From IMG/VR virus record IMGVR_UViG_3300050821_000645: a stretch of DNA of 64,000 bases; one strand, 5' to 3'. The position numbers were made by a program, and so were the translations under genes. Shown here in pieces: positions 2,200-58,624 of this stretch. Every line of letters begins with the position of its first letter. Positions within the stretch are counted from its first letter, which is position 1. Under the pieces are notes generated by a model, which was not told the DNA's origin, ran no database searches, and saw nothing but the letters and a program-made list of their open reading frames with translations. The DNA comes from a virus.

Positions 2200-2523
2200 G
2201 CATCGTTCAGGAGATTGTGCTTCATCAGGTCCTCATGGAGGGTCCTCAGATCGAGGATCCACGTAAGCGGGAGCGATACATAGACGAAACCATTAACGCC
2301 ATGACCAACGTCGAGCTGCTGGAGCGCATCAGCAATGCCATTGAGGCATCCAAGGGGTTTGACCCATGACCTGGGTCCTTATGGTGTTCATGCAGTTCCC
2401 GGACGGACACCGGGAGCTGCGCGGGTGGAGCGAGTACCCGACGGCTCAGGCGTGCTATAATGCTTTACCTGAACCCAAACCTGACGCTAGCCCTCTGCGG
2501 CTGGTGAAGTGCGTGCGACAACC

Positions 2524-3000
2524 ATGAGCGGCAAAGTATTCGTCATCAGCGACACGCACTTCGGGCACAAGCGCATCATCGAGTTCGAGAAGACCGCGCG
2601 CCCGTTTGCGACCATAGAGGAGCACGACCGTGAGCTGGTACAGCGCTGGAACGCGGTGGTCGACAAGAAGGACACGGTGTGGCACCTAGGTGACGTCTTC
2701 TTCGGCCGGGACGGGCACAAGGTGCTGGCCGAGCTGAATGGCTACAAGAAACTGGTGCTCGGCAACCATGACCATTACCCATTGGCTGTGTATCAGCAGT
2801 ACTTCGGCAAGATATTCGGGGCCGCTGAGTACCGTAACTGCATCTTAACGCACGTGCCCGTGCACACCTGCCAGATGTACAGGTATACGAAGAACATTCA
2901 CGGGCACATGCACAGCAGATCGACCGGTGACCCGAGGTACGTATGCGTCTCCGCCGAGCACACCGGGCTCGCCCCTGTGCTGATGGGGAGCGTGCTATGA
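2524..3000 (+). CDS. metallophosphoesterase (calcineurin-like Ser/Thr phosphatase family)
   Basis: motifs VFVISDTHFGH, WHLGDVF, LVLGNHD, HGHMH match the metallophosphoesterase signature (D-x-H...GD...GNH[DE]...H...GH-x-H); start taken at ATG 2524 rather than GTG 2509. Confidence 0.8.
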   Translation: MSGKVFVISDTHFGHKRIIEFEKTARPFATIEEHDRELVQRWNAVVDKKDTVWHLGDVFFGRDGHKVLAELNGYKKLVLGNHDHYPLAVYQQYFGKIFGAAEYRNCILTHVPVHTCQMYRYTKNIHGHMHSRSTGDPRYVCVSAEHTGLAPVLMGSVL

Positions 3001-22429: not shown

Positions 22430-22500
22430 CGGCCACGACAGGCCGCCAGCTGGGCGGTACAGCGCCTCCAAAGCGCATGACGGGTGGTTCGATTCCATCG
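22430..22500 (+). tRNA. tRNA-like element, Trp-type (anticodon CCA), noncanonical D-arm
   Basis: acceptor AGGCCGC/GCGGCCT (7 bp), G73, 3' CCA, T-arm GGTGG-TTCGATT-CCATC, anticodon loop CTCCAAA identical to canonical tRNA-Trp with U33/A37; D-arm region is only about 11-12 nt so the cloverleaf is incomplete. Confidence 0.5.
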
Positions 22501-22507
22501 CGGCCTG

Positions 22508-22583
22508 CCACTTCTATTGCGACGTAGCTCAGCAGCAGAGCAGGTGGTTCATACCCACAAGGTCGTGAGTGCAACTCTCACCG
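22508..22583 (+). ncRNA. second tRNA-like / pseudo-tRNA element (anticodon loop TTCATAC, CAT)
   Basis: TAGCTCAGC D-arm (GCTC/GAGC stem), perfect T-stem GTGAG/CTCAC, but acceptor stem pairs only with a bulge and T-loop is TGCAACT; degenerate. Confidence 0.25.
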
Positions 22584-46310: not shown

Positions 46311-47120
46311 TTGAGCCAGTTACACGACGCTAAGATCCTTGTGCTCGATATCGAGACCAGTCCCATTGAGGCTTATTGCTGGGCGCTCTGGGATCAGAAC
46401 GTCGGTCTCAATCAGATTAAGGTCGAATGGAGCATACTGAGCTTCGCGGCTAAATGGCTCGGTAAGCCGAAGGTGATCTACGAGGACACCAGCAAAAACG
46501 GCATCGGTAAATTCCGTGACGACAAGAAGCTGCTTATTAAGCTGCACGCGTTGCTCGACGAGGCCGACATAGTTGTCGCGCAGAACGGGCGCCGGTTCGA
46601 CGTCAAGAAGATCAACGCGCGCATGGTGATGGCGGGCCTTAAGCCGTACTCACCGATCCGCATCGTCGACACACTGGAGGCAGCCAAGAAGTACTTTTCA
46701 TTCACCAGCAATAAGCTGGAGTGGGCATCCGAGTGGCTCACCTCGCAGAAGAAGCTAGCGCACAAAGAGTTCCCTGGCTTCGAGCTGTGGAAGGAATGCT
46801 TAGCCGGTAATCCCAAGGCTTGGCGCGTGATGAAGAAGTACAACATCCGCGACGTCACGGCGACCGAGGAGTACTACATCCGCATCCGTCCGTGGATCGC
46901 CAATCACCCGAACATGGGCGTATACTCGGACATCATTGAGCATACGTGCACGAACTGCGCATCCCCCAACCTGCAGTCGCGCGGCAAGCAGCGCCTGCAG
47001 CAGGGGCTATACAACCGGTACCAGTGCCAGGACTGCGGCAAGTGGAGTCGTGGCAAGAACATGCTGCTAGCCATCAATAAACGCAAGGCGTTGCTGACGA
47101 ACATCGGCGACAAATCGTAA
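46311..47120 (+). CDS. RNase H-like (DEDD-type) 3'-5' exonuclease with C-terminal zinc ribbon
   Basis: ILVLDIETSP (Exo I), YNIRDV (Exo III-like), C-terminal CTNC...CQDCG. Confidence 0.55.
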   Translation: MSQLHDAKILVLDIETSPIEAYCWALWDQNVGLNQIKVEWSILSFAAKWLGKPKVIYEDTSKNGIGKFRDDKKLLIKLHALLDEADIVVAQNGRRFDVKKINARMVMAGLKPYSPIRIVDTLEAAKKYFSFTSNKLEWASEWLTSQKKLAHKEFPGFELWKECLAGNPKAWRVMKKYNIRDVTATEEYYIRIRPWIANHPNMGVYSDIIEHTCTNCASPNLQSRGKQRLQQGLYNRYQCQDCGKWSRGKNMLLAINKRKALLTNIGDKS

Positions 47121-50100
47121 ATGGATCAGAACCCGTATAACACAGAAGACAAGCCGGTAGATATCAGCGGTGCGTTGTCGCGCCTCGGGCATGTGCTGTA
47201 CACGCCGCAGGGCGGGGACCCGCGCACGCTGGCTAAGGTCGAACTTGGGCGGATGGGCGGAGATCTTGATGCAGCAAAGTCGGTGGGGCACGCACTTCTC
47301 GCAAAGAGCGCAGCCGGTTACGAGGCCATGGGCAGCCCGTTGGGATCCAATGAGCACGTGGACGAGACCGCAGCCCTACTGGGGCCAAAGTCCATCAGCC
47401 CCGAGGGGCAGTCATCCGTGCAGCGCCTCATGGATAACCTGGGGTCCGTCGGGAAGGCGACAGGAATAAGCGACCTCGCGCACTCGCTGAGCAGTAAGTA
47501 CAATGCGATGCAAGGCGCCGCAGAGCCGCTGATCCAAAAGTACGCCGGTATCCCGGCAGCAGCTGCCGCGCATGCTGCCTTCGAGACCGCCCCGCAGGCG
47601 GCTATTCCCGGGCTGGGAGAAGAGAGGGCCGCCGCTGGAGCCGCCGCTGATGTTGCGCGCACCCTGGGGCCGAGTGACCGCATACGCCAGGTCGCCGCTG
47701 ATTACATGAAGAGCGCCGGTCTGCCGCACGTGCCGCCGGGCGCTCCACTGAAGGTAGATCCTAATCGTGCCAGCGCCATCGCGCAAGCATTCGACGCGAT
47801 GCCTCACGCCCCCAATGACCCCAAGGTGGCGGCGTCGTATGATGCGATGATTAAGGAGACGATGGCGCAGTACCAGGCCATGAAGGCATCTGGCTTCCGG
47901 GCTGAGTTCATGCCACAGGGTCAGAACCCGTACCCGAAGATCAGCGACACGCTGCACGACATCCAGCAGAATAATCACATGTTTGTGTTCCCGACGGAGA
48001 GCGGCTTCGGCAGCGGCGACCTTGGCGGCAACCCGTTGCTGCAGCAGTCTGGTGAGAGTTTCAACGGCGTACCTGCGACGAACAACGACATATTCCGTGC
48101 GGTGCACGACTACTTCGGGCACGCTAAGGAGGGCAACACCTTCAGGGCGAACGGCGAAGAGACCGCGTGGGCCAATCACGCAGCGATGTACTCCCCTGCA
48201 GCCCGGCCAGCTATGACCACCGAAACCCGTGGCCAGAATAGCTGGGTGAACTTCGGTCCACATGGTGAGGCCAACCGAACTACTAGCGGCGCAGATACGG
48301 TGTACGCCCCACAGAAGATTGGGTTATTGCCTGATGAGTTCAGTCAGGCACCGCCAAGTCCGTATGACATCCTGGCGCAGTACCACGCAGATAACGGCGG
48401 GTCTACCTATCACCCTGGCACGAGCAACATACCTGATACCGGGTACTCCGTCAGTCTACATCCCGGCCGCGCCACAGTGATGGGCACCCCGCCAACGGGC
48501 CGCAACCTGAGCGACTACGTGCAGGCCAATCAGGACGCATTCGACAAGGATCCTGGCGCGCACCTCGGTACCTGGCATGACAAGGACGACTCCGGGATGC
48601 ACTACCTGGATGTGTCGCACGTCGACCCCAACCTGGATAGCGCCATGGAGAAGGCAAAGGGCGCCAACCAGAAGGCGATATTCGATTTGGGCGGCAAGCA
48701 AGAGATCCCTAACCCGCACTACGACCCCACGACTGATACTCAGGGTGCGCCCCAGGATGATAACCCGCTGGCTGCTGTAAGTCCCCTCAGGTTCACGGCA
48801 ACAGATCCCGGTAGAGTGCACCTAAACTCGCTCCCGGAGGCCCTGGAGCGCGAAGGAGAGGCCGCCAGACGCGACGCAGCCGATAGGCCGCCACCAGAAC
48901 CAATCCTCGACCTGAACGGCCCACTGCCGCCTCCTAATGCGTCCTACATAGGCAGCCAGGCATTCGCCGAGGGCGGAGAGGTGGGAGTGCTAGGGGATGC
49001 GCTCGCAACCGCCGCCCGGCTGCCGACACCGGCTGCGTTGAAGGCGAAATACGCAGACAATCCGCAGGCTATCCAGAACTTCCACGACTGGGCCAAAAAT
49101 ACTGCCGTCTCTTACACTAATGGCGAGCCTATACCGGTGTACCACAACACCGACGCGTTGAACGACTTCTCTGCCTTCAGGCCGTACCGTGGCGACATCG
49201 GCAGCCACTTTGGTACCAAGGGGCAGGCCAACATGCGCGGCGCCGCTGTACAGGGGCGCGTGCCGCCCGCTGTCGAGGAATCATCGCGCACTACCGGAGA
49301 CCTTAATCCGGTGCCCAAGAATCAGGTATCTGGTCAGCGCACTATACCCGCGTACCTTAGCATCCAGAACCCGTTGCGCACCCCAGATCTTGGGGAGTGG
49401 GGCCACGACCAGCTGAAGCAGTACCTGCTAGGAGAGGGAGAGCACGGCGCAGATGAAAATGCCATGTACCCAGCAGAGGCTGCTGGTATAGACCCAAAGG
49501 CCGTCGCAGCCACACAGAACAACCACCAGCTGCGCAAGGTGCTGCAGGATCACGGCTACGACGGCATCGTGTACGCTAACAATGGCGAACCCGACATGCC
49601 GCCTGCGATCCAGCTGGCGCGGCAGGATGCGGAGCAGAAGCGGCAGGCGTTCTTGCAAGACCCAGCCAACAAGCCGTACTGGGATACAGTTACTGGCGCC
49701 AATACCGCATCTCGCGGCGCGGGAGATATGGATGCGGCGGCGGCTCAATTTCCAGAGCAGCATGCGCAGTACCAGGCACTTGCTGGGCAATATCACTTGG
49801 CAGACGAAGCATACCGCCGTTTCATGCACTCAGCTGGCGACAACCCGGCCGACTCATACGTCGCATTCGACCCGTCTCAGGTGAAGTCCGCTGTCGGCAA
49901 CACGGGCGAGTTCGATCCCGGTACGCAGGACATCAATCACGCAGCCGGTGGTGAAGTGCGCAGCTACGCGGATGGCGGCGGGGTTGAGGGAGCTGGTTTG
50001 ATCGGTGACGCCATACAGCAGGTATCACATCTGCCTTTGACGGCTACGGCTGCTGAGGCCGCGCCTCTCGCGGAGCACGTCGCTCAGTATGGCGGGGCCA

Positions 50101-51536
50101 CCTACAGCCCGTCCACAGGGGCCCTGCATCGCTCTGGTAGCGTGACATCAGACCCCGAGTCTACCGTTGCGCTTGACCACGCACCAGACCCAGATGAGAT
50201 CCACGACTTCATGATGCAGAACCAGCATGTGCTAGGTGAAGATCCGCAGGCTGTGCTGCACATCACCAGCGACGACAATGGTAATCACTTCATACGCACT
50301 GGCACTCACGCGCCCGAGATGCCGCAAGACCCAGAGAGCATGGAGCCTTCGGAGCTAATAGACAAGTACCTTCAGTCTGGCTTAAGCTCGAAGCACCCTA
50401 TGGCCAGCGAGGCTGACTACAGCGCTCGCCCCAGTACTCCGTGGACTGCAGGTCAGCAGACAGTGGTGAACCCGAAACGGAATGCGTTCCCTGGAGTGTA
50501 CGGAGATCCACGCCAGGTGATCGCAGACGCGGCAGCGAAAGTTGGTCCTGAAGATCCTCTAATGCAGCGATTGTTTGGAGTATCACGTGCCGATCTCTCA
50601 GACTTGTCTCTGTCCAGGCAGGGAAATGAACTTGGGGTTCTGCCAGGGGAAAAGCAGAATCCACAAGGAGCAGCATCAGCTCGCGACGTAATGACTCCGC
50701 AGAACGAGCAACGCCTAATTGACGTTCTCGGCGAAGCTCGCAAGGCACCTGGTCTGTATCAGGGGATGACGGGTTGGTACGCAATGGATCCTCTGTTTCA
50801 GCACTTCGTTAAGGAGTTCGGCCCCGATGAGGCGATCGCACGATACAAGCAGTTTAATACACTGAGCGGAATGGCATCACCAGGATCTGACGTCGGTTCA
50901 GAGATCGCTCGTGGGTCAACTGCGAATGCGCTGCACACGCAGGGGCGCTTCAATGACTTCGTACGCTACGGGGGTGGGGTGGAGGATTCAGGTTCATCCG
51001 GTCGGCCTGCCGACATGGCGGACCTTCCAGGTCATGTCTATCATAGGAGTCAAGCGCTTCCCATGCAGCAGTACCTGGAGAGCGGTGAGATGCAGATGAA
51101 GTCACCTAAGGTGCCTATGTACATCGCAGCCAGCGGCGTTCCAGAAACTGGCTTTCAGACGTCGACTCCGGTTGGGGACGCTCACTGGGCCCGTGCAGTA
51201 GGGCTTGCTGACACCAGGAACATGCGCACACTAAAGGGGCAGGAAATAGTTCCAGGTTCCTCCGTGAGCACTCCAGAGATGCAAACTCTTGCGCCATGGT
51301 GGCGTGATCGAGTGGCGGGTCCTGCTGGTCTTGAAAGTGTTCCTGCTCAGGCTCTGGCGTGGGGCGCGTTCTCTCCACAAACCGGGGTAAAATCTGCGAT
51401 AGGAGCACCAAAGCTAGAGATCCTATCCACACAAATAGGTAAGCTGGCAGATCGCTTAGGAATATCACCGGAGGAGGCCCGTGACCGGGTCGTGCGCGGT
51501 GAAGCTGGAGCTTTCAGCGCTGGCGGCGTGGTGTAG
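47121..51536 (+). CDS. giant virion-associated protein (1,471 aa), function unknown
   Basis: largest ORF in window, last gene of the + structural block, ATGG coupling to upstream gene; no catalytic motif recognised by eye. Confidence 0.6.
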   Translation: MDQNPYNTEDKPVDISGALSRLGHVLYTPQGGDPRTLAKVELGRMGGDLDAAKSVGHALLAKSAAGYEAMGSPLGSNEHVDETAALLGPKSISPEGQSSVQRLMDNLGSVGKATGISDLAHSLSSKYNAMQGAAEPLIQKYAGIPAAAAAHAAFETAPQAAIPGLGEERAAAGAAADVARTLGPSDRIRQVAADYMKSAGLPHVPPGAPLKVDPNRASAIAQAFDAMPHAPNDPKVAASYDAMIKETMAQYQAMKASGFRAEFMPQGQNPYPKISDTLHDIQQNNHMFVFPTESGFGSGDLGGNPLLQQSGESFNGVPATNNDIFRAVHDYFGHAKEGNTFRANGEETAWANHAAMYSPAARPAMTTETRGQNSWVNFGPHGEANRTTSGADTVYAPQKIGLLPDEFSQAPPSPYDILAQYHADNGGSTYHPGTSNIPDTGYSVSLHPGRATVMGTPPTGRNLSDYVQANQDAFDKDPGAHLGTWHDKDDSGMHYLDVSHVDPNLDSAMEKAKGANQKAIFDLGGKQEIPNPHYDPTTDTQGAPQDDNPLAAVSPLRFTATDPGRVHLNSLPEALEREGEAARRDAADRPPPEPILDLNGPLPPPNASYIGSQAFAEGGEVGVLGDALATAARLPTPAALKAKYADNPQAIQNFHDWAKNTAVSYTNGEPIPVYHNTDALNDFSAFRPYRGDIGSHFGTKGQANMRGAAVQGRVPPAVEESSRTTGDLNPVPKNQVSGQRTIPAYLSIQNPLRTPDLGEWGHDQLKQYLLGEGEHGADENAMYPAEAAGIDPKAVAATQNNHQLRKVLQDHGYDGIVYANNGEPDMPPAIQLARQDAEQKRQAFLQDPANKPYWDTVTGANTASRGAGDMDAAAAQFPEQHAQYQALAGQYHLADEAYRRFMHSAGDNPADSYVAFDPSQVKSAVGNTGEFDPGTQDINHAAGGEVRSYADGGGVEGAGLIGDAIQQVSHLPLTATAAEAAPLAEHVAQYGGATYSPSTGALHRSGSVTSDPESTVALDHAPDPDEIHDFMMQNQHVLGEDPQAVLHITSDDNGNHFIRTGTHAPEMPQDPESMEPSELIDKYLQSGLSSKHPMASEADYSARPSTPWTAGQQTVVNPKRNAFPGVYGDPRQVIADAAAKVGPEDPLMQRLFGVSRADLSDLSLSRQGNELGVLPGEKQNPQGAASARDVMTPQNEQRLIDVLGEARKAPGLYQGMTGWYAMDPLFQHFVKEFGPDEAIARYKQFNTLSGMASPGSDVGSEIARGSTANALHTQGRFNDFVRYGGGVEDSGSSGRPADMADLPGHVYHRSQALPMQQYLESGEMQMKSPKVPMYIAASGVPETGFQTSTPVGDAHWARAVGLADTRNMRTLKGQEIVPGSSVSTPEMQTLAPWWRDRVAGPAGLESVPAQALAWGAFSPQTGVKSAIGAPKLEILSTQIGKLADRLGISPEEARDRVVRGEAGAFSAGGVV

Positions 51537-53510: not shown

Positions 53511-53987
53511 TCATTGTACCACACTATCCCGGGTGTGCTGCTTCGGTGTTAGGTGCCCGTACTTGTCCTTAATCTTGACCATGATGGCCTCCATCTCGGC
53601 GTACACCGGGTTCAGGTCGATGCCGTTGGCGGGGCGGTCGTCGACGATGTTCTTCAGGTGGTGCGTCTCGATAAGGATGTTGATGCACGCCTGAGCGTTC
53701 GCCAGGTGCGGTGTGCCGTCGCTGTCGTACCACTCACCCTCCCAGTACCGGTCGATGTGCCTGGCCAGCGCAGATACGTACACGCTGGCACGTGCGCCGC
53801 CCCCGCGCCAGTTCCAGGCGCCGTACTTGACGTTGCCAAGGAAGTGCGCAATCGCCTGGTACGCCTTTACGATGGGGCTGACGAGGTGCAGCGGCAGCTT
53901 CGTGATCCCGATGGCGTCCTTGGGGTTGGTGTCCTTAGTGACAAGCACACGATCATTCATAAGTTCCCGCTCACGAGTAAGCGTCAC
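53511..53987 (-). CDS. hypothetical protein in nucleotide-metabolism operon
   Basis: 158 aa; KYGAWNWRGGG...RH...GEWYDSDG...HH motifs; 4-nt overlap with downstream DUF4406 gene. Confidence 0.4.
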   Translation of the reverse strand: MTLTRERELMNDRVLVTKDTNPKDAIGITKLPLHLVSPIVKAYQAIAHFLGNVKYGAWNWRGGGARASVYVSALARHIDRYWEGEWYDSDGTPHLANAQACINILIETHHLKNIVDDRPANGIDLNPVYAEMEAIMVKIKDKYGHLTPKQHTRDSVVQ

Positions 53988-54430
53988 CCTATCATCTCCG
54001 TGTAGATGATGCTGAGAACGTCCTCGCGGTCGATGTCGGTCACCGGCTCGTAGGGTCCATTGTACTCAAGGAACTCGAAGTCTTGGCTCTGCAGGAGACC
54101 TACGAACGACTCCAGGCGTGCGCCGCGCGACTTGTACCAATCGGGTTGCAGGTAGATGATGCCCTGCACCTGGTCAGCAATCAGCTTTACGTCGCGCGCC
54201 AGGAAGTCGGCCCACGTCTTCTGGCCGCCGCTGGTGCCGGTACCGGGTGCGCCGTCGGCAGACTTGAGGGCGGCGCCCTTATCCTCTTCATCGTCCAACT
54301 CGGCCGGGCTGACGATATCGAACCCGCGATCACGCAGATCCTTGGCGGCGGCGAAGAACGCCGGAAAATTGAACTGCGGAATGCCGGACATCGGCCCAGC
54401 CAAATAGTAAGTTGTCATTTCGTCTCCCAT
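53984..54430 (-). CDS. DUF4406 / nucleoside 2-deoxyribosyltransferase-like protein
   Basis: N-terminus TTYYLAGPMSGIPQFNFPAFFAAAKDLRDRGFDIVSPAEL matches the DUF4406 hallmark (YLAGPMTG...N.P.F..AA..LR..G..V..PAE). Confidence 0.5.
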   Translation of the reverse strand: MGDEMTTYYLAGPMSGIPQFNFPAFFAAAKDLRDRGFDIVSPAELDDEEDKGAALKSADGAPGTGTSGGQKTWADFLARDVKLIADQVQGIIYLQPDWYKSRGARLESFVGLLQSQDFEFLEYNGPYEPVTDIDREDVLSIIYTEMIG

Positions 54431-54771
54431 GCGCGCTTACCGCGCCGTGCTTCGATCTTTTCAACATTGGCTTCCATCACGGAATCCATCTCTAGTCCGT
54501 AGTGCGATGCAATGCGGCAAGTGTAGTGTAGCACATCTCCCAGCTCCAGCAGCAGCTTGTTCCGATCCAGTGGCCCATCCCCACGGATCTCCTTCTTGAC
54601 GCGCTCCGTGATTGCGCCTGTGCCCTTGCGGATCTCTGCGATCACCTCGTCTACCTCGCCAGACAGCCCCAGCGTCATCACAGCCAGCTCCCTGACCGCA
54701 TCCTGCTCGCTGCCTACCTTACGCGTCCAGCCAGCCTCTACCCATTTCGCAAACTCATTCAATGTCATCAC
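54415..54771 (-). CDS. MazG-like nucleotide pyrophosphohydrolase
   Basis: LGLSGEVDEV...ELGDVLHYTCRIASHYGLEMDSVMEANVEKI matches MazG helices (EE.GE...E.GDvLw..). Confidence 0.7.
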   Translation of the reverse strand: MMTLNEFAKWVEAGWTRKVGSEQDAVRELAVMTLGLSGEVDEVIAEIRKGTGAITERVKKEIRGDGPLDRNKLLLELGDVLHYTCRIASHYGLEMDSVMEANVEKIEARRGKRAWETK

Positions 54772-55192: not shown

Positions 55193-55417
55193 TTAAAAAC
55201 CTTTAACCTTGCTAATTTCGTCTGCTGCATCCATCAGCAGGCCACGTATCTGCTCGTGCTCGGTCCCGCGCAATCGCTCGGCTGTGCTATACAGCGACGA
55301 AATAAGGTTCTTGCGGCGCGCTTTCACGCACCGGCATGCGAACCTGTTGCCGCTGCCGCACTCTTGACAATCTGTATAGCTACTCACTTCACTTTGACTC
55401 CTGCTCCGTGCACTCAC
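55193..55417 (-). CDS. small zinc-finger protein
   Basis: CQECGSGNRFACRC. Confidence 0.35.
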   Translation of the reverse strand: MSARSRSQSEVSSYTDCQECGSGNRFACRCVKARRKNLISSLYSTAERLRGTEHEQIRGLLMDAADEISKVKGF

Positions 55418-55655
55418 TGGTGTCTATGAAACCATCACCGCATCGCCTGATGTACGCCGTTCCGCCGTCTACAGCGAATGACCATGTGGTCTCACCAGGC
55501 ACATCCACCAGCTTATCATCCACCCACCTGCGGCGCTGCGCTGGCTTGACGGCGCAGTAGTGCACCTGGAAATCGTGCCGGTGGCGACTCTCTATCTCTG
55601 TGCCGCAGTGTACGCACTTAGCGCTATTGCGTATGATACGCGGGAGTTCGCTCAC
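55389..55655 (-). CDS. zinc-ribbon protein
   Basis: CVHCG...C...C; GTG start overlapping NAMPT-like stop (track ORF 55389..55715). Confidence 0.35.
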   Translation of the reverse strand: MSELPRIIRNSAKCVHCGTEIESRHRHDFQVHYCAVKPAQRRRWVDDKLVDVPGETTWSFAVDGGTAYIRRCGDGFIDTSECTEQESK

Positions 55656-57145
55656 CGCCGCAGCCTTCCACGGATGTCTGCCAGCGTGTGCTTCTTCTTG
55701 AACTTGCCGTTGCACCAGACCTCCTCCAGGAGGTTGCCGGTCATCTGGTCTGAATCTTTGCGCAGGCCATCGATCAGGTGCAGCTTCCCAGGGGCGTCGA
55801 CGAACTCGGCCACAGCAAGCCGTCCACGGGCGCTGCGCTTGACCCCGTCATCTGTCACCGGGTCCTTGAATAGCTCGTGCTCTACGCCGTTTACCTGCGC
55901 CCAGGTAGCCTTCATCGCGAACCCAAAGGTATCCCGGGTGACGTACTGGTAGTTGTAGCTACCCACACCGAATACCACGTTCGTGGACGCGAATCCCTTG
56001 GCCTTTAGCCGCTCGCAGATCTGCGCCGCCCGGTCGCGGTTAATGCTGTCCCCGTAAATCGCGCCGATGTGCTGATCCAGGACTTTGTACCCAGCCTCAT
56101 TAACGGTGCCGCCGAAGATGTTCCACAGGGTCTCGACAACCCCCGCGTACCGGGCGTCGCGCTCCGGCCGAAAGTCGGCTGTCATGATCTCCGGCTTCTC
56201 GGTGCCGCACAGGATGTCGACCGGGTCTCCGCTGTCCGGCCTTATCACAAGCTTACCATTGCGCGCCAGAATACGATACTTGAGCTGCGGCAGGATGTAC
56301 GCCAGCACCTTCCACAGGTCCCAGGTGTCGCTGACCACGCTCAGGATTCCTGACGGGTACACGTCGAGCAGCCGCTCGAAAGTAGCTAGCTCTCCATCCT
56401 GACCACCCGCGCACATAACGCTGTGCTCGGTAGCGGCTACGCTACCACCGAGACCAGGTTGCCCATAGTAATACCGCTCAAGTAGCTGTATTGCTGGTAC
56501 GGTGTCGGTGCCGGTGAAGCTGAGCAGATGTCCTGCTCCACTGAGAGCCGCATCCTCTGGGCCAGACATGCCCCGAAAGCTGAAGTCGTGGCCCTGCCAA
56601 TTGATGAAGCCAGGATCGCCTCCAGTTCGCTGAGCATATAACTCAAGGGTCTTGCGGAAAGCGTGAGCTGTTGTTGCGCTTGTGCAGGCTTTCCAGAGGA
56701 CGTTGGAGAGGATGGTCTCGAAGTAGTTGGTAACCCAGAAGAACTCAGGAATTGTGTTCTCCACTGTGAACATAGGCACCCGGAGAGGGACGCGAGTTCC
56801 TTCTGGGAGAGCCTTAAATCGCAGTGGGATATATCCCAGGTCATGGAGATCTGCGATGTGCTGGGTGCCGATATTGTTTGGCCCGAGACCGGAGTCGAGC
56901 ATACGCTGGTATCGCTTACAAACGGCCCCTCGCTGCTTTCCGAAGAAAGTCTCGTTAGCCAGCTCTTGGAAATAGGCTGCGAGAAAATATTGCAGCCCGA
57001 AGAACACAACCTCATTAACGCCTGGTACTCGGCTCGCCCTAGGGGTGAAGTTGGAGTAGACATACTCTGTTCCTTGGGGGTACTGACGACGATGGTCAGC
57101 CTTGTAAAAGTCGAACAGCGAAATAAGGTCAAACATTTTCAGCAT
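55652..57145 (-). CDS. NAMPT-family phosphoribosyltransferase (NadV-like; candidate Namat of NARP1)
   Basis: 497 aa; N-terminus MFDLISLFDFYKADHRRQYPQGTEYVYSNFTPR matches the NAMPT signature (TDSYK.TH..QYP..T..VYSYFE.R). Confidence 0.8.
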   Translation of the reverse strand: MLKMFDLISLFDFYKADHRRQYPQGTEYVYSNFTPRASRVPGVNEVVFFGLQYFLAAYFQELANETFFGKQRGAVCKRYQRMLDSGLGPNNIGTQHIADLHDLGYIPLRFKALPEGTRVPLRVPMFTVENTIPEFFWVTNYFETILSNVLWKACTSATTAHAFRKTLELYAQRTGGDPGFINWQGHDFSFRGMSGPEDAALSGAGHLLSFTGTDTVPAIQLLERYYYGQPGLGGSVAATEHSVMCAGGQDGELATFERLLDVYPSGILSVVSDTWDLWKVLAYILPQLKYRILARNGKLVIRPDSGDPVDILCGTEKPEIMTADFRPERDARYAGVVETLWNIFGGTVNEAGYKVLDQHIGAIYGDSINRDRAAQICERLKAKGFASTNVVFGVGSYNYQYVTRDTFGFAMKATWAQVNGVEHELFKDPVTDDGVKRSARGRLAVAEFVDAPGKLHLIDGLRKDSDQMTGNLLEEVWCNGKFKKKHTLADIRGRLRR

Positions 57146-57998
57146 CCTTCAGTATCTTATCGATCACGGGCTGCAATGATACCACATACAGTCTATTGGG
57201 GTCATGCACGGTGCCGGTGATATCATTACGCTGCCAGCTGTCGGTGGTCATGATTAGCTCATACTTGGGGTGTATCGCATTCAGGCCCTTCGAGAAGATG
57301 CCGTGCGATACCCACAGAGCCAGCTCGCTGTCCTTAGCGTATGGATCCTTCACGAACTCCTCAGCCAGCAGGTTGAATGTGCCGCCGCCGTCGCAGATGT
57401 CATCTATGACCACATACGATCCAGGTCCCGGTAATGGTGGCATCTTAAAGCCGGTGAACTTACCGGTGGCGAAGTCTCGTGTCTTCTCGCACACGATCAC
57501 CGGGTTACGGATCTGTGCGGCATCGGCCGTATCCTGCGCCCGTCCGATAGCCCCATGGTCGGGTGCGATGATGTACGCGTCGCCTGGCGCTGGTGATGGA
57601 TCAATCACCAGATCGCGAGGCATGAAGTTGCGCTTGATACGCAGCCCGGCGAAGTGCACCGATGAATGTAAGTCGAAGGTGTATAAGTTGTTCACGTATT
57701 GCCCGAGCATGCGCCCGATCATCTCTCGCGTGACCGGTGTACGGTAGTCGGTGCGGTCCTGACGGGCCCCGGGGAAGTACGGGCAGAACAACCACACCTT
57801 GCGGTTCTTCGTGTGACCCTGGTAGTACAGCGCATTCAGTACGCACATAGCCAGGCCGACGTCGTTCCAGGTGCGCGGCTTGAGAAACAGCAGAGCATCC
57901 CCGAAGTTCTCTGGGATGCGTGCGTGCGGCTCGCCTCCCGGAAAGAAAAAAGTCTCAATGCCGCTGGCTGCGTAGTTGTCGCTGTCGATGACCTTCAT
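57129..57998 (-). CDS. ribose-phosphate pyrophosphokinase (Prs) homologue (candidate Adps of NARP1)
   Basis: 289 aa; PRTase loop YVVIDDICDGGGTF; overlaps NAMPT-like gene by 17 nt. Confidence 0.75.
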   Translation of the reverse strand: MKVIDSDNYAASGIETFFFPGGEPHARIPENFGDALLFLKPRTWNDVGLAMCVLNALYYQGHTKNRKVWLFCPYFPGARQDRTDYRTPVTREMIGRMLGQYVNNLYTFDLHSSVHFAGLRIKRNFMPRDLVIDPSPAPGDAYIIAPDHGAIGRAQDTADAAQIRNPVIVCEKTRDFATGKFTGFKMPPLPGPGSYVVIDDICDGGGTFNLLAEEFVKDPYAKDSELALWVSHGIFSKGLNAIHPKYELIMTTDSWQRNDITGTVHDPNRLYVVSLQPVIDKILKDAENV

Positions 57999-58624
57999 TT
58001 CATCATCCTGTGGTAGATCGACCGAAGGTTCTCTACGTCGGCGATATTGTGCCGCTCGACGGACTCCCAGTCCCCGGCGTCAATAGCCGTACCGACGTCA
58101 GCCCCGGTGATGTCGTCCTCACGTGGGATGCCGAGTACGCGCTCCAGCTCGACCTGCTTGATGTACCCACGGTACCCCATCCACTCCTTCATCGGGTCGA
58201 AGTACCCGTCACGCTGGCTCAGCGCCGCCCTGATAGCGGTCGGAACAGGAACCCGGTTAATGACCATTCGCTGCATCAGGAAGCGCAGATCGAACTCGCC
58301 GTTAAAGGCCACCAGTTGCCCCCTGCCTTGGTCTGTGAACGCCAGCGCCACGGCGTGCAGCATCCCAAGCTCGTCGTCGCCGTACACACACTTCACCGAA
58401 TTGGTGCCAACGGCCCACGCAAAGCTCGCCAGTCGGCCATACGTCCCGTCTAATGACGTCTGCTCAACAGCGGCGAGCTGCGCCGCCGGGGCCTTCTCCT
58501 TCCACCAGGCAGCCAGTGTCTCAGCCTTGGAGATGTTGCCAGGGGGCTGCACGGACGCCTTCAGCCGCGCGATCACCGCAGGGTCACTGGTGCGCCTAGT
58601 CTCGCAGTCGAAGAAGATACTCAC
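57995..58624 (-). CDS. DEDD-type 3'-5' exonuclease (RNase H-like)
   Basis: SIFFDCETR (Exo I), YHRMMK C-terminal region (Exo III-like); 209 aa; 4-nt overlap with Prs-like gene. Confidence 0.55.
   Translation of the reverse strand: MSIFFDCETRRTSDPAVIARLKASVQPPGNISKAETLAAWWKEKAPAAQLAAVEQTSLDGTYGRLASFAWAVGTNSVKCVYGDDELGMLHAVALAFTDQGRGQLVAFNGEFDLRFLMQRMVINRVPVPTAIRAALSQRDGYFDPMKEWMGYRGYIKQVELERVLGIPREDDITGADVGTAIDAGDWESVERHNIADVENLRSIYHRMMK

Follow-up and report, generated by a model that had tools for sequence, protein, structure and literature searches.

The IMG/VR virus record IMGVR_UViG_3300050821_000645 raises the question of whether a pair of overlapping genes, encoding a Prs-like and a NAMPT-like protein, rebuilds nicotinamide adenine dinucleotide (NAD+) destroyed by host immunity or serves ordinary nicotinamide salvage. 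A preliminary description of this DNA, for which the window was the whole 64,000-nucleotide stretch analyzed here, had proposed the pair as a candidate NAD+ reconstitution pathway 1 (NARP1), an anti-defense pathway that was described in 2024 and is found in approximately 4.3% of sequenced phages (Osterman et al.); structures of both of its enzymes now exist. Our analysis favors this proposal, with a probability of roughly 88% that the pair is a two-gene NARP1 module, adps followed by namat, in an uncultured tailed phage of 67.9 kb. We infer what the two enzymes do, and their anti-defense role, by homology to assayed enzymes.

In the pathway envisaged, a host NADase defense (Thoeris, DSR, SIR2-HerA, SEFIR, and similar systems) would cleave NAD+ into ADP-ribose (ADPR) and nicotinamide. 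Adps would then pyrophosphorylate the terminal ribose of ADPR with ATP as the donor, yielding ADPR pyrophosphate (ADPR-PP), and Namat would exchange the pyrophosphate of ADPR-PP for nicotinamide to form NAD+ directly. An adenine clamp in Namat (R39, Y397, Y401, T403, and D405) would select ADPR-PP over phosphoribosyl pyrophosphate (PRPP), and no nicotinamide mononucleotide (NMN) adenylyltransferase (NMNAT) would be required.

Identity of the two enzymes

The NAMPT-like protein, 497 amino acids (aa) in its longest open reading frame (ORF), was correctly placed in the NAMPT family by the preliminary description: it matches PF18127 NAMPT_N (E value, 3e-10), PF04095 NAPRTase (E value, 1e-39), NF006629 (556 bits), and phrog_448 (E value, 9e-192). 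Its top match in the PDB is the Namat of Bacillus phage SPbetaL1 (9w5x/9w5w) with 545 bits, and the second of its two best entries scores 442 bits, whereas the human, rodent, and Xanthomonas NAMPT chains among the PDB matches listed score 239–250 bits. The protein is 44–56% identical to seven Namat proteins, those of SPbetaL1, FADO, ICP1, Felix-type phage wV8, Tourach, DyoEdafos, and Trina (51–56% for SPbetaL1, FADO, DyoEdafos, and Trina), and only 30% identical to the KVP40-type Nampt of Vibrio phage QD01. Its assignment to the Namat clade is based on these bit scores and identities and not on a formal Namat tree.

The structure of SPbetaL1 Namat has been solved, and the adenine clamp was found to confer specificity for ADPR-PP (Lan et al., 2026; PMC12774641). 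According to the same study, the clamp follows a consensus published as specific to Namat, GS-X-phi-X-phi-X-phi-TRD in which positions 3 and 7 are aromatic, and also involves loop residue R40 at a stacking position held by Arg, Lys, or Tyr; clamp double mutants lost NAD+ synthesis driven by ADPR-PP but kept PRPP chemistry. The clamp helix is present in the NAMPT-like protein as G395-S-Y-N-Y-Q-Y-V-T-R-D405, with aromatic residues at both positions, whereas in the KVP40-type Nampt of phage QD01, which lacks an aromatic clamp, the corresponding columns read GGGLLQQLDRD. The stacking Arg at the SPbetaL1 R40 position is R39, within TPRASR-VPGV, in a loop equal in length to that of SPbetaL1. With D13, Y15, F189, R192, D215, the catalytic His, R306, and D308 of SPbetaL1 as the reference, the catalytic core is complete (D12, Y14, F188, R191, D214, H241 in ATEHSV, R302, and D304). 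The NAMPT-like protein is thus, on these sequence grounds, a Namat.

The partner protein of 289 aa had been described as a ribose-phosphate pyrophosphokinase homolog with the phosphoribosyltransferase (PRTase) loop YVVIDDICDGGGTF, which occupies residues 195–208. The homology holds but is distant. Pfam Pribosyltran and Pribosyltran_N matches are weak, and the protein scores 75.1 bits on TIGR01251, against a cut-off of 113, falling below every curated NCBI Prs cut-off. On the same model, Escherichia coli Prs scores 423 bits and six comparison Adps proteins (the Tourach and Trina homologs and four that were themselves assayed or belong to assayed systems) score 71–124 bits. Among the equivalog models, with cut-offs of at least 296 bits, none gives the Prs-like protein more than 54 bits, and E. 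coli Prs reaches 533 bits. Most validated Adps proteins also miss the Prs cut-offs.

Residue comparison with the ICP1 Adps structures (PMC13586617), which cover the apo, ADPR/ATP, and ADPR-PP/AMP states, placed F19, R79, H111, D147, K172, D199, D200, D203, and F208 at the positions of ICP1 F18, R87, H121, D161, K185, D212, D213, D216, and F221; I214 and C215 have conserved counterparts as well. Most of the catalytic and substrate residues compared are also shared by Prs; F208 and the x-T-G hairpin are those that tell Adps from Prs. A lid Phe at the ICP1 F221 position is common to all eight phage proteins compared, including this one, whereas the residue is Leu or Ile in the E. coli and human enzymes. 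The same eight proteins share the hairpin K-x-R-[DN]-x-x-T-G, which reads K-R-R-P/K-x-A-N in E. coli and human PRPS. In the Prs-like protein, the catalytic hairpin is K172-T-R-D-F-A-T-G179 (KTRDFATG), accompanied by the loop motif DDICDGGGTF, of which DDICDG is identical in ICP1, Felix-type, and actinophage Adps. An AlphaFold2 model (mean predicted local distance difference test score, 83.5) has the PRPS fold, with a template modeling score of 0.78 to human PRPS1, and places the hairpin strands at residues 171–174 and 181–185.

The closest characterized relatives of the pair are those of Mycobacterium phage DyoEdafos (cluster L/Lclasvirinae; gp77 Adps and gp79 Namat), Tourach, and Rhodococcus phage Trina, with 34–39% identity (106–125 bits) for Adps, including the cluster L mycobacteriophage proteins DyoEdafos gp77 and Tourach gp74, and 52–56% identity for Namat; the Prs-like protein scores only 44 bits against E. 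coli Prs. DyoEdafos Adps and Namat have been assayed in vitro, where NAD+ was made from ADPR. Like the DyoEdafos group, the Prs-like protein has DDICDGGGTF and the hairpin K-x-R-D-F-x-T-G; in both, the regulatory flexible (RF) loop is short and has no equivalent of ICP1 F92, and a short C-terminal strand-helix is retained. Taken together, the cut-offs, the motifs, the nearest relatives, and the tree described below support the Prs-like protein as a probable Adps. The comparison of both proteins with characterized Adps and Namat versus Prs and Nampt, which had been suggested as a check, came out on the side of NARP1 (545 versus approximately 250 bits, a sub-cut-off Prs score, and the motifs).

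A neighbor-joining tree of 35 sequences and 264 columns, bootstrapped 300 times, splits canonical Prs (E. coli, human, and Thermoplasma volcanium) from all phage proteins with 93% support and joins the Prs-like protein and its metagenome relatives to the actinophage Adps with 96%; the tree is crude, however, and canonical Prs is represented in it by no more than three sequences, of which two are partial, which is one of several points that weigh against the assignment. The Prs-like protein is 23–30% identical to the Adps of ICP1, Felix-type wV8, SPbetaL1, and FADO, compared to 22–26% identical to E. coli Prs. As an Adps test, phrog_619 did not discriminate, giving E. coli Prs 193 bits and the Prs-like protein 165 bits, and neither did hidden Markov models built from four or five validated Adps proteins, on which the Prs-like protein (74–116 bits) and E. 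coli Prs (83–107 bits) score alike. The ICP1 adenine contact F92, in the RF loop, falls in an alignment gap. The position is equally gapped in the assayed Adps of DyoEdafos and SPbetaL1, and F92 is therefore not a family-wide feature. Finally, loss of the PRPS C-terminal alpha11-alpha12 module has been put forward as an Adps hallmark (Liu et al., 2026), yet the AlphaFold2 model, although the protein falls 26 residues short of the length of E. coli Prs, retains a C-terminal strand (270–272) and a 12-residue helix (276–287) that resemble the start of alpha11-alpha12. Sequence and fold searches of the PDB returned only PRPS entries, which confirms the PRPS fold and does not separate Adps from Prs, the ICP1 Adps entries being absent from the searched copies.

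Competing explanations and known NAD+ pathways

The preliminary description had reported no NMNAT gene nearby, and this could be extended to the whole reconstructed genome of 67,937 bp: with NadR and NadD of E. coli as queries, a six-frame phmmer search at maximum sensitivity gave best E values of 0.4–1.9. No Pfam match to an adenylyltransferase, Nudix, PnuC, or Macro domain is listed for any called gene, PnuC having had no dedicated query. A scan for the HxGH motif found no nucleotidyltransferase-type context. Its only match in a plausible gene, DTHFGH, belongs to a small calcineurin-like metallophosphatase (Metallophos, 23.3 bits with a gathering score of 21.5; Metallophos_2, 26 bits with a gathering score of 27), which is not a nucleotidyltransferase and is unrelated to the Macro-type ADPR-1''-phosphate phosphatase of NARP1-AP. 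Maximum-sensitivity phmmer searches of all six-frame ORFs with DyoEdafos gp78 (RyDEP) and Cody gp176 (Macro phosphatase) gave a best E value of 2. By its predicted gene content, the module is a plain two-gene NARP1 and not NARP2, NARP3, NARP1-AP, or the RyDEP-extended form.

The main competing explanation of the pair is salvage through PRPP and NMN, in which the Prs-like protein would make PRPP from ribose-5-phosphate, the NAMPT-like protein would make NMN from PRPP and nicotinamide, and host NadD or NadR would complete NAD+. Both the source annotations and PHROGs label the two proteins in this way. Moreover, Namat enzymes still use PRPP in vitro, making NMN (PMC12774641), which counts against a strict NARP1 assignment, and, overall, the Prs-like protein resembles E. 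coli Prs not much less than it does several validated Adps proteins. However, it misses all curated Prs thresholds, has motifs specific to Adps, and groups within the Adps clade, and SPbetaL1 Adps gave no measurable product in a control described in a figure legend as ribose-5-phosphate plus ATP. The PRPP-using Nampt proteins of phages form a separate clade, 94% of which co-occur with a phage NMNAT, and none was found here. Salvage is unlikely in light of these points, and the preference for NARP1 already expressed in the preliminary description is upheld by the Namat clamp, the Adps motifs, the position in the Adps clade, and the failure to find an NMNAT.

NARP1 chemistry could also serve a housekeeping role, recycling ADPR and nicotinamide released by NAD+ consumers of the phage or host, such as the 1,471-aa ART-PolyVal protein of this phage, a polyvalent protein with an ADP-ribosyltransferase domain. 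Clamp-bearing Adps-Namat pairs in many Bacteroidota chromosomes, where an anti-defense role is not obvious, would fit such a role, as would the finding that bacterial NARP1 is active with no physiological role assigned (PMC12774641). Yet ADP-ribosyltransferases leave ADPR on their target and do not release it free, the genome yielded no hydrolase (Macro or ARH) that would release ADPR, and all phage NARP1 systems tested so far countered NAD+-depleting defenses; we consider a housekeeping role quite unlikely. In favor of a NARP2-like or NARP3-like pathway with an overlooked adenylyltransferase or transporter partner, the window lacks 3,937 bp of the genome, and gene calling on the source contig overlooked at least two small genes. 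This absent 3.9-kb part was, however, recovered and searched, with a best E value of 0.4 for the NadR and NadD queries and no nucleotidyltransferase context for HxGH. Furthermore, no phage is known to carry NARP1 and NARP2 together, and NARP3 has no Prs or Nampt component, which makes this explanation hardly credible.

Compared to the known systems, the predicted two-gene NARP1 module resembles that of DyoEdafos in the order adps to namat and differs in that DyoEdafos has an RyDEP glycosidase (gp78) between the two genes, which here overlap. The hosts of the DyoEdafos group probably also differ, as the terminase of this phage is nearest to those of Caulobacter phages. SPbetaL1, the founding biochemical and structural reference, has a two-gene operon with adps first, as here. 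Its Namat is 51% identical, and all NAD+-contacting residues, including the clamp, are kept or conservatively replaced (F392 to Y and A362 to S), whereas its Adps is only 23–27% identical and has DDLSSFGGTF in place of DDICDGGGTF. ICP1 Adps (Vibrio phage) shares the PRPS-like fold at 25–30% identity; relative to it, the Adps described here has no F92 equivalent, has Leu in place of F223, and has a C-terminus approximately 20 residues longer, with a predicted helix. NARP2 (KVP40 Nampt plus Nmnat) and canonical NadV/Prs salvage use the same superfamilies, a type II PRTase (Nampt) and the PRPS fold. They differ in a Nampt that lacks the aromatic clamp, whereas here no Nmnat was found and the Prs-like protein lies far below the Prs cut-offs. 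NARP1-AP of Vibrio phages Gary and Cody (Adps-Adpp-Namat) shares the Adps and Namat core and adds a Macro-domain ADPR-1''-phosphate phosphatase (Adpp), which was not found in this operon or genome. NARP3, unlike this pair, consists of a PnuC-like transporter and a NadR-like enzyme.

Gene layout and genome context

The three co-oriented ORFs of the preliminary description, the exonuclease-like, Prs-like, and NAMPT-like genes, were recovered at the coordinates given there (Table 1). The identical 289-aa protein is recorded on 65–68 kb metagenome contigs, and 3,339 homologs were found. The ORFs are real genes and not chance frames. Read along the minus strand, the genes follow one another as the exonuclease-like gene, the Prs-like gene, the NAMPT-like gene, and the DUF7695 ORF. 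The exonuclease gene, which had been placed after the pair, does overlap it by 4 nucleotides (nt) but lies upstream of the Prs-like gene. A scan for promoter and terminator consensus sequences gave counts not above those in shuffled sequence, and no operon boundaries were obtained from it.

Table 1. Coordinates of the predicted NARP1 genes, their neighbors, and other features mentioned in the text.
Feature	Coordinates	Strand	Length	Description
adps	57129..57998	minus	289 aa	PRPS-fold, predicted ADP-ribose pyrophosphate synthetase (ADPR + ATP -> ADPR-PP + AMP)
namat	55652..57136	minus	494 aa	predicted nicotinamide ADP-ribose transferase (ADPR-PP + nicotinamide -> NAD+)
namat, longest ORF	55652..57145	minus	497 aa	
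adps stop/namat start overlap ATGTTTGA	57129..57136	minus	8 nt	AAGGA box 8 nt upstream of the ATG
DEDD-type exonuclease-like gene	57995..58624	minus	209 aa	context only; ATGA overlap onto adps
DUF7695 zinc-ribbon gene	55389..55655	minus	88 aa	context only; GTGA overlap with the namat stop codon
Small ORF with CxxC...CxC pattern DCQECGSGNRFACRC	55193-55387	minus	64 aa	GTG start with an AGGAG box 10 nt upstream
MazG, DUF4406, and dGTP_diPhyd_N run	53511-54771	minus		downstream of the pair
ART-PolyVal protein gene	47121-51536	plus	1,471 aa	ADP-ribosyltransferase domain PF18760 (residues 667-931)
Second RNase_H_2-like gene	46311-47120			upstream of the ART-PolyVal gene
tRNA-Trp (CCA)	22440-22510	plus		single tRNA, in the structural region
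Calcineurin-like metallophosphatase gene	2509-3000	plus		

The 17-nt overlap reported between the Prs-like and NAMPT-like genes is correct for the longest namat ORF. The second ATG, at position 57136, is the likelier start and shortens the overlap to 8 nt: it is preceded by the AAGGA box and is also the start called on the source contig, and the 8-nt overlap ATGTTTGA recurs in three relatives on independent contigs. By this arrangement, adps and namat are predicted to be translationally coupled, and both enzymes would therefore be expected to be made together.

Regarding the neighbors, the exonuclease-like protein, which has an FFDCET DxE motif at its start, scores above the gathering thresholds of PF10108 DNA_pol_B_exo2 and PF13482 RNase_H_2, and the DUF7695 gene (PF24749, 51 bits) is absent from the gene calls of the source contig. 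Both genes hold the same positions in one related 65.7-kb phage. The earlier grouping of the exonuclease and the pair as one operon stands insofar as the three belong to the same transcription unit; as a third NARP1 gene, however, the exonuclease was rejected, being absent from all 78 other viral loci and adjoining adps only in this phage lineage. DUF7695 was likewise rejected as a NARP1 accessory, since eight of nine IMG/VR loci with close relatives have no NARP1 within 6 kb. The two are judged, from this distribution, to be lineage-specific neighbors and not components of NARP1.

The window represents 64,000 of the 67,937 bp of a circular or circularly permuted tailed phage genome, and a Logan contig bridges its end to its start through 3,937 bases (L012:6029-9965) carrying Band_7, RNA_ligase, and small ORFs. 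Structural genes (terminase, capsid, and SU10-type adaptor) and lysis genes occupy the plus strand at approximately 12–51.5 kb. The pair sits among small early-type genes in a minus-strand block at approximately 61.5–51.5 kb, i.e., in an early or replication gene block. The terminase is closest to those of Caulobacter phages GB2A, RLK, KcrB, and RW (45.5% identity), and the operon matched none of 50,697 phage records at the nucleotide level. In a scan of bacterial genomes for the host, the best matches were short contigs of metagenome-assembled genomes (45% and 41%), and no host was assignable.

Several other genes of this genome deserve mention. The 64-aa ORF beside the DUF7695 gene has no Pfam match, and the related phage has a 65-aa PF21825 "Sequestin" protein at that place. 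The run of genes for MazG pyrophosphatase, DUF4406 (nucleoside deoxyribosyltransferase-like), and dGTP_diPhyd_N (dATP/dGTP diphosphohydrolase N-terminal domain) is kept in the related phage and may serve manipulation of the deoxynucleoside triphosphate pool or DNA modification; DUF1367 is also among the genes that follow the pair in the minus-strand block. The ART-PolyVal protein is a predicted NAD+ consumer encoded in the same phage as the predicted NAD+-rebuilding pair, and a Band_7 gene lies upstream of its gene along with the second RNase_H_2-like gene.

Distribution and implications of the pair

A Namat homolog, usually directly downstream and mostly clamp-bearing, lies within 6 kb at 76 of the 78 IMG/VR loci examined that encode a relative of this Adps, which reproduces the reported Adps-Namat association of 97% (Osterman et al.). 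One of the loci (L056:5992-8412; IMGVR_UViG_3300049830_000142) carries an Adps-Namat fusion as a single 806-aa ORF, with the Adps match at residues 58–277 and the Namat match at residues 322–796. The phrog_12872 profile (547 positions) is similarly divided, Adps proteins matching the first part and Namat the last. Enlarged Namat proteins also occur in relatives, one of 767 aa on a 439-kb contig (L017:5824-8127) and another in an 805-aa stop-to-stop ORF (L059:6780-9197) with a mid-protein insertion of approximately 285 residues, which resembles that in the Namat of Felix-type phage wV8 (593 aa).

The 80 best bacterial matches (L106-L185) are nearly all from Bacteroidota, including Cellulophaga, Larkinella, Tenacibaculum, Aquimarina, and Saprospiraceae, and many lie on large chromosomal contigs. 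These bacterial Adps-like proteins carry DDICDGGGTF and a K-x-R-D-V-x-T-G hairpin, and 52 of the 80 have a Namat homolog, usually with the clamp motif, within 3 kb. Chromosomal NARP1-like pairs look widespread in Bacteroidota, judging from these matches.

The Adps lineage to which this protein belongs comprises more than 100 metagenome clusters at 46–82% identity and is at most 39% identical to any sequenced phage. It is a speculative thought, and an unlikely one, that this large and almost wholly uncultured lineage, with its PRPS-like C-terminal helix and short RF loop without F92, differs in substrate range or regulation, for example by using ribose-5-phosphate as well as ADPR or other ADPR-derived immune products, or that the coupled flanking genes (DEDD exonuclease and DUF7695) are lineage-specific NARP1 accessories.

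The pair is a divergent additional example of NARP1 and not a new system, as the pathway, the structures, and the distribution have already been published. It provides a usable sequence rule for calling NARP1, consisting of the Namat clamp motif, the Adps lid Phe, and the x-T-G hairpin, which serves where general models fail to tell Adps from true Prs: PHROGs do not separate them, and the Prs-type matches obtained from Pfam and NCBIfam are no more than weak and sub-threshold. The example comes from an uncultured phage with a terminase closest to those of Caulobacter phages. This phage is predicted to resist NAD+ depletion by Thoeris, DSR, and SIR2-type defenses and, by analogy with NARP1-AP, would be expected to stay sensitive to aRES-type defense.

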